A DNA stretch of 64,000 bases from an uncultured Pelagibacteraceae bacterium (GTDB lineage: Bacteria > Pseudomonadota > Alphaproteobacteria > Pelagibacterales > AG-422-B15). Positions 44,287 to 45,933 of this stretch are shown here, one piece after another. The stretch's first letter is position 1; the number at the start of each line of letters is the position of its first letter. The position numbers and the translations under genes were made by a program. The stretch spans positions 263,040-327,039 of the forward strand of contig CACHAK010000001.1 of NCBI GenBank assembly GCA_902577765.1, read 5' to 3'. Below the pieces are notes generated by a model, which saw only the letters and a list, made by a program, of their open reading frames with translations, had not been told where the DNA came from and did not search any database.

Positions 44287-45933
44287 ATGTTATTTGTTTT
44301 CAGGAAAATTTTCGCCGACAGAGTACTTTTCTTTAAGATGTTAGTTGCATCTCTTTTTGTAAACCTGTTAGCTTTGGCAACTCCAATTTATGTTATTCAA
44401 GTTTTGCAGAGATACATTGCCTATGGAGTAATTTCTACCCTTATAACTCTTTTTTTTGGAATCATATTTATAGTTATTTTTGAATTTTTTTTCAAAAATA
44501 TTAGACATCGAATGGCGAGGCAATATGAGCTAGGCAATGTGACTTATGCCAATCAGGTTTTGAATAAACTCGTAACTATAAAAACCCAGATTTACGAGGT
44601 CTCTAAAAAATTTAGGAATGACATCATAAATCATCATTTATCAAATATACAAAATACATTTTCTGCTACTAATATTGTTTCTATATTAGATGTTCCATTC
44701 ACATTAATTTTTTTACTAGCTCTTTTTTTAATTCATTATCAGCTCGGCCTTATCACCCTCTTTTTTCTAGGATTGCCGTTCTTAGTTAATAAAGTTTTAA
44801 ATGAGAGGGTACATAAACTATCTCAACAGTCTGTGATGGATAATAACAACTCATTTAGATTATTTGAAAATGTAATAACAAGAAATAGTACAATTAAGTA
44901 CTTTAATATTTTACAGTTTATAAGCAATTCATGGAACTTAATTGCTAATAGAATTGCAAATACAAGAGAAAATCTCGAAACAGAGAAAAATTTAGTTAAT
45001 TCTTTTTCAGGCCTAATAGCATCTTTATTGACTGTCTTCATTATTGGATGGGGTGCAACACTTGCGGTTGATGGACAAATATCAGTAGGTGCTTTAATTG
45101 GCGCAAATATTCTAGCTGCAAGAGCCCTTATGCCAATAAATAGACTAGTTGTACTTCAAGACCAAATATCAAGAATGGAAGACTCTTATAATGAACTGAA
45201 TAGATTTTCGAGCTACGCATCTGATAAGTCTGAAGGAAGAGAAATACAAGATCTTAAAGGTAAGATAGTTTTAGAAGATGCTTTTTTTCAATACCCTGAA
45301 CAAAAAAACCCAATTTTTGAAAGTTTAAATCTTAGTGTTTCACCAGGGGAATTAGCAGTTATTGTGGGTAACAATGGATCGGGAAAATCGACACTTATTA
45401 AATCATTATCTGGAATTCTTGAGTTTACTAGAGGAAGATTTTTTTTAGATGATATTGAAGTAACTCAACTGGCTGAAAAATGGTATCGCAGAAATTTGAT
45501 ATACTCACCACAAGAGCCAAAATTTGTTGATGGAACTATTAAAGATAATTTAATTGGTGAAACGAAAATTGAACAAAACCAATTTGTTAAAATATTAACC
45601 GACACCAACTTAATTAATTTTATAAATTCAGATAAAAACGGTATTAATAAGATTTTAGACTCAAGTGATGATCAATTGCCATTAGGCATCAAAAAGAGAA
45701 TGGCCCTGGCAAGAGGGATGGTAAATAATGGAAAATTAATATTTCTGGATGAGCCTACAGAAGGTCTAGATAATGAAGCTAAAAAATCAGTAAATAAAAT
45801 AATTAAAAACTTCAAAAATGAAAAAAGAAGCTTAATTATTGCCACTAACGATCAATCAATAATTGATATATCTGATATTTTAATAGATCTAAATTCAAAA
45901 CCAAAACCGCAAGTAGTTAAACATAAAAAATGA
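44287..45933 (+). CDS. T1SS ABC exporter (TMD plus NBD, no C39-like domain)
   Basis: SLFVNLLALATPIYVIQV, GALIGANIL, GNNGSGKST, YSPQEP, FLDEPTEGLD. Confidence 0.9.
   Translation: MLFVFRKIFADRVLFFKMLVASLFVNLLALATPIYVIQVLQRYIAYGVISTLITLFFGIIFIVIFEFFFKNIRHRMARQYELGNVTYANQVLNKLVTIKTQIYEVSKKFRNDIINHHLSNIQNTFSATNIVSILDVPFTLIFLLALFLIHYQLGLITLFFLGLPFLVNKVLNERVHKLSQQSVMDNNNSFRLFENVITRNSTIKYFNILQFISNSWNLIANRIANTRENLETEKNLVNSFSGLIASLLTVFIIGWGATLAVDGQISVGALIGANILAARALMPINRLVVLQDQISRMEDSYNELNRFSSYASDKSEGREIQDLKGKIVLEDAFFQYPEQKNPIFESLNLSVSPGELAVIVGNNGSGKSTLIKSLSGILEFTRGRFFLDDIEVTQLAEKWYRRNLIYSPQEPKFVDGTIKDNLIGETKIEQNQFVKILTDTNLINFINSDKNGINKILDSSDDQLPLGIKKRMALARGMVNNGKLIFLDEPTEGLDNEAKKSVNKIIKNFKNEKRSLIIATNDQSIIDISDILIDLNSKPKPQVVKHKK

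Follow-up and report, generated by a model that had tools for sequence, protein, structure and literature searches.

The mechanism of ATP-binding cassette (ABC) transporters is taught with an essential H-loop histidine and an LSGGQ signature clamp, and non-canonical ATP sites are held to be tolerated only beside a consensus site in a heterodimer. Here we examine the ABC gene of a type I secretion system (T1SS) encoded in a 64,000-nucleotide stretch of DNA from an uncultured Pelagibacteraceae bacterium (contig CACHAK010000001.1 of GenBank assembly GCA_902577765.1; the whole stretch is called the window below). Its product has LPLGI in place of the signature and an asparagine at the switch position of the H-loop. 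The protein belongs to a large subfamily of T1SS ABC proteins that share an altered signature and, as the product of the sole T1SS ABC gene, would probably form a homodimer with two identical, non-canonical but working ATP sites.

The top structural match to the window protein is HlyB of the Escherichia coli haemolysin T1SS (PDB 8dck, 7sgr), with which it shares ~23% identity (sequence E-value 2e-41). Both are half-transporters made of a transmembrane domain (TMD) and a nucleotide-binding domain (NBD), and both are accompanied by a HlyD-type adaptor and a TolC-type channel. HlyB, however, carries an N-terminal C39-like domain (CLD), an LSGGQ signature, an SALD D-loop and the catalytic H662 (PMC8277102), whereas the window protein is devoid of this appendix and reads LPLGI, EGLD and Asn at the corresponding sites. 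PrtD of Aquifex (PDB 5l22; TIGR01842) has the same layout and a similar length of ~550-590 amino acids (aa), with an E-value of 1e-39 and a TM score of 0.84, but the family of the window protein forms a clade separate from the canonical appendix-less alphaproteobacterial T1SS ABC proteins, most of which read LSGGQRQR and all of which have SH or TH. The LssB/LapB type (TIGR03375) provides the best-scoring curated model, and both types are associated with giant surface proteins; LssB/LapB-type exporters have a CLD, whereas the window protein has none at its N-terminus and scores below the cut-off. Non-canonical signatures together with a substituted H-loop residue are likewise found in heterodimeric exporters (TM287/288, TmrAB, TAP1/2, ABCC1 and CFTR), which combine two different NBDs into one full consensus site and one degenerate site, the latter usually without the Walker B glutamate (PMC7544095). 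Unlike these, the window system has one gene, two ATP sites that would be alike, and a catalytic glutamate that is kept.

Architecture and ATP-site motifs of the exporter

Pfam resolves the 548-aa protein into ABC_membrane (PF00664, residues 17-278) and ABC_tran (PF00005, residues 345-491). No N-terminal C39 or C39-like domain was found in it, the LssB model TIGR03375 aligning only from model position 142. This model is the top NCBIfam match (1e-95), yet its 321 bits fall short of the cut-off of 693, and the curated models for PrtD (TIGR01842, 255 against 510 bits) and HlyB (TIGR01846, 203 against 726 bits) are missed as well. An AlphaFold2 model with a mean predicted local distance difference test score of 85.5 has ATP-bound HlyB in the HlyB/HlyD complex as its top fold match (8dck_A; TM score 0.91, root-mean-square deviation 2.8 Å over 548 columns), with PCAT1, MsbA and PrtD close behind; a PDB search with the NBD by itself gave only eukaryotic ABCB proteins as top matches. 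With a TMD-NBD chain of HlyB/PrtD-like fold, and with a HlyD-family adaptor and a TolC-family factor encoded nearby, the gene is a T1SS ABC exporter by architecture and context.

A sequence-only reading of this DNA had described the Walker A, Q-loop and Walker B (FLDE) motifs as intact, the signature as degenerate and the switch histidine as replaced by asparagine. Direct reading of the open reading frame (ORF), its translation and alignments to solved exporters bear this out, and the signature and the asparagine lie at exactly the positions that had been reported for them (Table 1). In every phmmer alignment to solved ABC exporters (Pgp-1, ABCB1, Ste6-type) LPLGIKKRMALARG falls on LSGGQKQRIAIARA, and in such alignments the Asn of IIATND falls on the His of IIIAHR. 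For the signature, an alignment with the MsbA-like paralogue of the same genome agrees in register; that alignment slipped at the H-loop, where the register is that of the phmmer alignments to solved exporters. The canonical NBD catalytic set is consequently incomplete at three places (LPLGI, EGLD and Asn). On the other hand, the change that usually marks a truly degenerate site, loss of the catalytic glutamate of Walker B (PMC7544095), has not occurred, E489 being present and invariant in alignment A2.

A word-indexed search of ~5.8 billion proteins listed 120 orthologues, most of them marine metagenome sequences, with identities of 58-100%. All of those listed whose motifs were readable by our parser have LP[LVI]GI as signature and A-T/S-N at the switch position, and a single LALGI was met in a later locus. 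Same-genus orthologues at 46-50% identity read LPFGIRKR, and their switch residue is Gln (ATQD, STQD or SSQD). The invariant columns of alignment A2 include Y336, G361, K367, Q409, L464, G467, R471, D488, E489 and D495, while P465, I468 and E492 are nearly invariant. In a comparison with an orthologue of 95% identity, dN/dS came to 0.034 for the gene as a whole and to 0.044 for its NBD, and the ABC gene is therefore under strong purifying selection.

These data bear directly on whether the gene is decaying or non-functional, or its motifs the product of a sequencing or assembly error, for which the sequence-only reading had advised a check of motif states in orthologues. Beyond the unusual motifs themselves nothing points to such an explanation, and the frame is intact, more than 120 independently assembled orthologues show identical motif states, dN/dS is 0.03-0.04, and the locus is syntenic in other assemblies. 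Orthologue conservation and dN/dS effectively refute sequencing error or decay, whose chances we regard as negligible. The orthologue is carried by ~15 of the 24 same-genus genomes and is absent from all 16 near-complete sister-family genomes examined, and since the latter lack the gene, the T1SS is best seen as an accessory trait of the genus.

Table 1. Coordinates in the window of the ABC gene, its ATP-site motifs and the other genes of the secretion locus.
Feature	Position	Strand	Remarks
ABC half-transporter P0001, 548 aa	44287..45933	+	TMD and NBD, without C39/CLD appendix; intact frame
A-loop Tyr336 (FFQYP)	45292..45294	+	Direct reading; invariant in alignment A2
Walker A GNNGSGKST, G361 to 369, K367	45367..45393	+	Direct reading; Lys in 134/135 family representatives
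Q-loop Gln409 (YSPQEP)	45511..45513	+	Direct reading; Gln in 131/135 family representatives
Non-canonical signature LPLGI, residues 464-468, followed by KKRMALARG	45676..45690	+	Aligned onto LSGGQ
Walker B LIFLDE, residues 484-489, with D488 and catalytic Glu489 kept	45736..45753	+	Direct reading
D-loop EGLD, residues 492-495 (canonical SALD), with family-specific Glu492	45760..45771	+	Direct reading
Asn521 (IIATND) at the switch His position of the H-loop	45847..45849	+	Alignment to solved exporters
TolC-family outer-membrane factor	33630..34991	+	Pfam OEP 1.5e-33, in two stretches; TIGR01844 1e-31, below cut-off
Giant 3058-aa highly acidic ORF, presumed cargo	35041..44217	+	ORF list; cargo role inferred from locus position
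HlyD-family membrane-fusion protein	45930..47144	+	TIGR01843 322 bits, cut-off 209

A subfamily with an altered signature

An exhaustive phmmer search was run on 1.84 billion cluster representatives (clusters at 50% identity or less), and the best 150 matches were examined. Some 135 of them are half-transporters of 520-600 aa at 27-45% identity, six are ~1000 aa long and a dozen ~1300 aa. Among the 135 family representatives, the Walker A Lys is present in 134, the Q-loop Gln in 131, the Walker B Asp in 134 and the D-loop Asp in 133, and the position of the catalytic Walker B glutamate holds Glu in 122 and Asp in 12. The signature is another matter: its first position is L in 111 and its fourth G in 132, but the second is S (56), P (43) or A (34), the third most often L (51), V (31) or P (23) and never Gly, and the fifth I (91) or V (20) and Gln in only four, which gives the consensus L[SPA][LVP]G[IV] followed by R-R-R. 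The D-loop has its own family mark, Glu at position 492 in 105 of the 135 (TEGLD), a position filled by S, A, G or N in canonical T1SS ABC proteins and by Ser or Ala in canonical ABC proteins. At the switch position 61 representatives (45%) have His, 28 Asn, 15 Ser, seven Gln and six Asp, the rest being scattered.

His and non-His members have the same Walker B Glu, D-loop Glu and signature, and among the family representatives the state of the switch residue shows no association with Ser, Pro or Ala at the second signature position. Compensating substitutions accompanying the loss of the histidine were sought across the NBD and rejected, since no column differs systematically between the two groups (the largest total-variation distance, 0.40, falls on a variable position).

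A FastTree phylogeny of 158 sequences, with canonical T1SS ABC proteins of Alphaproteobacteria and the MsbA-like protein of the same genome at its root, places the family in a single clade (support 100) apart from the canonical T1SS ABC proteins. At least 33 changes between His and non-His states are needed on the family tree. The 16-row subclade that holds the window gene (support 99) has only N, Q and S at the switch position, and no His.

Membership in the family was defined by the monophyletic clade, a score of 520 bits or more with profile A1, which was built from the family with the window protein included, an LxxG[IV][RK][RK]R signature and a [TS]EGLD D-loop. The window protein lies in the clade, has both motifs and scores 695 bits. 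Across 300 sampled Alphaproteobacteria, five genomes reach at least 568 bits with A1, and everything else stays at or below 387 bits; the next-best group consists of appendix-less T1SS ABC proteins of ~590 aa that mostly read LSGGQRQR and all have SH or TH. Matches at E<=1e-130 occur in 36 of 400 sampled Pseudomonadota genomes (~9%), and in some genera there are up to three paralogues at separate loci (genomes G346, G352, G380, G384, G417, G453, G519 and others). Judged by sequence, this is a large monophyletic T1SS ABC subfamily and not a peculiarity of the window gene. The family-wide signature, the apparent dispensability of the histidine across the family and the meaning of the retained catalytic glutamate had all escaped the sequence-only reading.

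The family has so far gone under generic database names, such as 'ATP-binding cassette domain-containing protein' (Skermanella stibiiresistens WP_037450855.1, a member with the switch His, and metagenome-assembled genomes (MAGs) of Rhodospirillaceae), or under 'LapB' at JGI, a label that on the orthologues is a best-hit annotation only. No NCBIfam model reaches its cut-off for any of the six half-size or HlyD-fused family members tested. In the full-text literature covered (most subscription journals lie outside it) we found no description of this ABC family or of a SAR11 T1SS, and the L[SPA]xG[IV]RRR/TEGLD subfamily is apparently undescribed so far.

Where family operons elsewhere were read, they contain one ABC gene. 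Locus L014 consists of ABC, HlyD and TolC genes, and locus L015 (Rhodospirillaceae MAG MED687) of genes for an RTX protein, an acidic FecR-domain protein, the ABC protein (LSLGVRRR, AHD), HlyD and TolC. The two putative cargos of L015, of 716 aa (RTX; positions 22-2172 of that locus) and 1414 aa (FecR domain; 2900-7144), are both encoded upstream of the ABC gene and have a closely similar C-terminus of ~80 aa (…LLIF…RYQEG…TSEADFSGELSVVAIF…), which is probably a secretion signal domain.

The longer matches have other layouts. Those of ~1000 aa are P0131, P0158, P0188, P0245, P0250 and P0262; the one tested, P0131, is an ABC half-transporter fused to a full HlyD-type adaptor (TIGR01843 at residues 605-1035), a single-chain ABC-HlyD architecture of which we know no description. 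Those of ~1300 aa are tandem ABC-ABC proteins (P0193, P0224, P0236, P0254, P0257, P0260, P0264, P0268 and P0270), with an appendix-less half followed by a CLD-bearing half of LssB type; of these, P0193 was scanned and scores above the TIGR03375 cut-off. In P0193, P0236 and P0268, where both signatures were readable, both are non-canonical (LPAGV and FSASF, for example), and the switch residue is His in most halves read, with one Asn and one Pro. From their domain order the tandem proteins look like fused two-ABC T1SS exporters. Milder variants of the signature (LPGGLRQR, LAGGLRQR and LSAGIRQR) were also seen among ordinary alphaproteobacterial appendix-less T1SS ABC proteins (loci L100, L105, L106, L107 and L109), always with the His kept, and drift of this motif in T1SS ABC proteins may be more frequent than textbook accounts imply.

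Subunit composition and the ATP cycle

Only one ABC gene is present in the locus, as the sequence-only reading had said, and its first explanation for the degenerate motifs was a canonical second subunit encoded elsewhere, which would pair one consensus site with one degenerate site. We looked for such a partner with PF00664 in the genome itself (1.27 Mb in 19 contigs, 90.5% complete) and by searching the ABC protein against 40 relatives, 24 of the same genus and 16 of the sister family. Three ABC exporter membrane-domain genes were found in the genome, that of the T1SS locus included. The second encodes a 576-aa MsbA-like protein with canonical LSGGQKQR and AHRLS, and the third a 581-aa protein in a polysaccharide locus, next to a GDP-mannose-dehydratase-like gene, with canonical LSGGQRQR and AHRVN; neither is T1SS-like. 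Besides the orthologue, the 24 same-genus genomes gave only MsbA-like matches (20-35% identity, E<=1e-20), and the 99%-complete congener G024 has the orthologue and an MsbA-like gene, and no second T1SS ABC gene. At 11 further family loci, no second ORF containing a Walker A motif was found within ~1.5 kb on each side of the gene.

The idea of a heterodimer is not without arguments. Two-ABC T1SS such as RtxB/RtxE exist, tandem ABC-ABC proteins occur among the distant matches of our own search, and the genome is only 90.5% complete. Degenerate motifs of this kind are, moreover, typical of heterodimeric exporters (PMC7756269). However, a second, different ABC half-transporter gene with which the protein could pair was seen neither in this genome nor in G024, the only other exporters of type IV being the MsbA-like ones and, in the window genome, that of the polysaccharide locus; family members elsewhere, where read, sit in single-ABC operons or are fused to HlyD; and even with a partner one site would still have no switch histidine. 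We therefore consider a heterodimer highly improbable, and gene content does not support the partner option of the sequence-only reading, whose account of the motifs stands. Because no second T1SS-type ABC gene is available, a homodimer of the ABC protein is expected, and hence, as inferred from gene content, two equivalent non-canonical ATP sites.

In the homodimer that we propose, the ABC protein would be the only inner-membrane ABC component of a three-part T1SS (TolC-like, ABC and HlyD), with the adjacent giant acidic protein as the most likely export substrate. Each composite site would draw its A-loop, Walker A, Q-loop and Walker B Asp-Glu from one subunit, and would be closed by the opposite subunit with an altered signature (only Leu1 and Gly4 are kept in LPLGI) and an altered D-loop (EGLD), an Asn amide taking the place of the H-loop imidazole. 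Such sites would bind ATP and hydrolyse it, the Walker B Glu that they have kept serving as catalytic base, and the switch residue, which is N, Q or S in the clade, would have to do no more than form a hydrogen bond with the gamma-phosphate. Since hydrolysis, unlike ATP binding, depends on the Walker B Glu, we take the retention of this residue to argue that ATP would still be hydrolysed. Signature Gly4 contacts the gamma-phosphate through its backbone amide; a signature reduced to Leu1 and Gly4 is expected to hold the ATP sandwich together less tightly, and this weakened clamp would alter the rate or the coupling of the cycle, probably slowing it and not abolishing it. We speculate that contacts made in trans by the D-loop Glu492, or by the extra basic residue past the signature (QRQR becoming IRRR or IKKR), might compensate. 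There are precedents for other residues at the switch position: TAP1 has a natural Gln there, and the H1068A mutant of Pdr5 reportedly keeps its ATPase activity. In ABCC1, replacement of the catalytic-site H-loop His by Gln or Asn keeps wild-type-like transport, and other substitutions abolish it (PMC7756269).

The same family data could be read in another way, namely that ATP binding at the two non-canonical sites closes the dimer and hydrolysis there is extremely slow or absent, cargo export being driven mainly by, for instance, extracellular folding or ratcheting, membrane potential or slow spontaneous release. The signature of the whole family is without Ser2, Gly3 and Gln5, and signatures of this kind mark non-hydrolytic sites in heterodimers (PMC7756269). 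The loss of the histidine at least 33 times with no compensating change, together with a switch residue that drifts freely in the family as a whole, fits a relaxed need for fast catalysis. What argues against a pure binding switch is that the Walker B Glu, which is needed for hydrolysis only, is kept in 122 of 135 representatives (with Asp in 12) and invariant in the SAR11 clade, that the family has likewise retained the Q-loop Gln and the D-loop Asp, and that in the clade of the window gene the switch residue does not drift freely but is confined to the hydrogen-bonding N, Q and S. We accordingly regard a switch that binds ATP with hardly any hydrolysis, the chief rival reading, as rather unlikely.

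Several points nonetheless weigh against a homodimer with working ATP sites, which remains the reading that we find probable. The homodimer is deduced from gene content only, in a genome that is 90.5% complete. The HlyB H662A mutant is reportedly close to ATPase-dead. The H-loop His of HlyB, the closest solved relative, has been described as catalytic (PMC8277102). The changes at signature Ser2 and Gly3 are typical of the non-hydrolysing sites of heterodimers, and that the switch residue drifts freely in the family, to S, D, A, F and R, might just as well indicate that little depends on hydrolysis; the figure of 33 changes is itself approximate, having been obtained with FastTree on divergent sequences. 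For the window gene, the putative low-ATPase variant that the sequence-only reading had offered as its second option is the one of its two that may still hold. To extend the argument to a widespread family of single-gene, homodimeric T1SS ABC proteins with a productive cycle, a dispensable H-loop His and a replaced LSGGQ, in which some of the catalytic or sensing work may fall to the TEGLD Glu, acting in trans, or to the extra Arg past the signature, is a step that we take only tentatively and with some doubt.

The secretion locus and the meaning of the family

The TolC-family gene, the giant ORF, the ABC gene and hlyD form a co-directional cluster, in which the start of hlyD overlaps the stop codon of the ABC gene (ATGA). 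Synteny of the locus extends to two other assemblies, GCA_003213535.1 and GCA_902620725.1. The giant ORF is extreme in composition, with 13.5% D+E, 0.1% K+R and an isoelectric point of ~4, and its G+C content of 51% stands beside a window average of 36% and 30% for the ABC gene. In Pfam it has only a compositional 'XPC-binding' match with no individually significant stretch, and NCBIfam revealed no known T1SS C-terminal target domain in it, nor any known C-terminal secretion domain shared by the cargos of the ABC family; its tail and that of an L015 cargo give a weak alignment (E=0.25).

Directly past hlyD, a 357-aa ORF (47050..48123) encodes an inverse-autotransporter beta-domain (IAT_beta, 2e-31) with no passenger, and is followed by a 314-aa ORF with no Pfam match (48126..49070). 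In the syntenic loci of two related assemblies (L125 and L127) HlyD is followed directly by an APS-kinase-like gene, and for this reason we interpret the two ORFs as an insertion in the window genome and not as a fixed part of the T1SS.

As a machine, the system looks like an ordinary T1SS, and it is one of the few secretion systems in a streamlined, SAR11-like genome. For annotation, the consequence is that a whole family fails to reach the cut-off of any curated T1SS model and goes under the labels 'LapB' or 'ABC domain-containing protein'. For the mechanism, it offers a family of presumed homodimers in which both ATP sites are non-canonical, under strong purifying selection, and in which the histidine has given way dozens of times to other residues, N, Q, S and D among them. 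If the pumps of this family hydrolyse ATP, the model of the histidine as linchpin would not be general for T1SS; if they do not, giant proteins can be secreted with ATP binding or some other source of energy as the driving force. Should a productive non-canonical cycle prove true, the natural H, N, Q, S and D variants would amount to a ready-made mutational series on hydrolysis by ABC ATPases.

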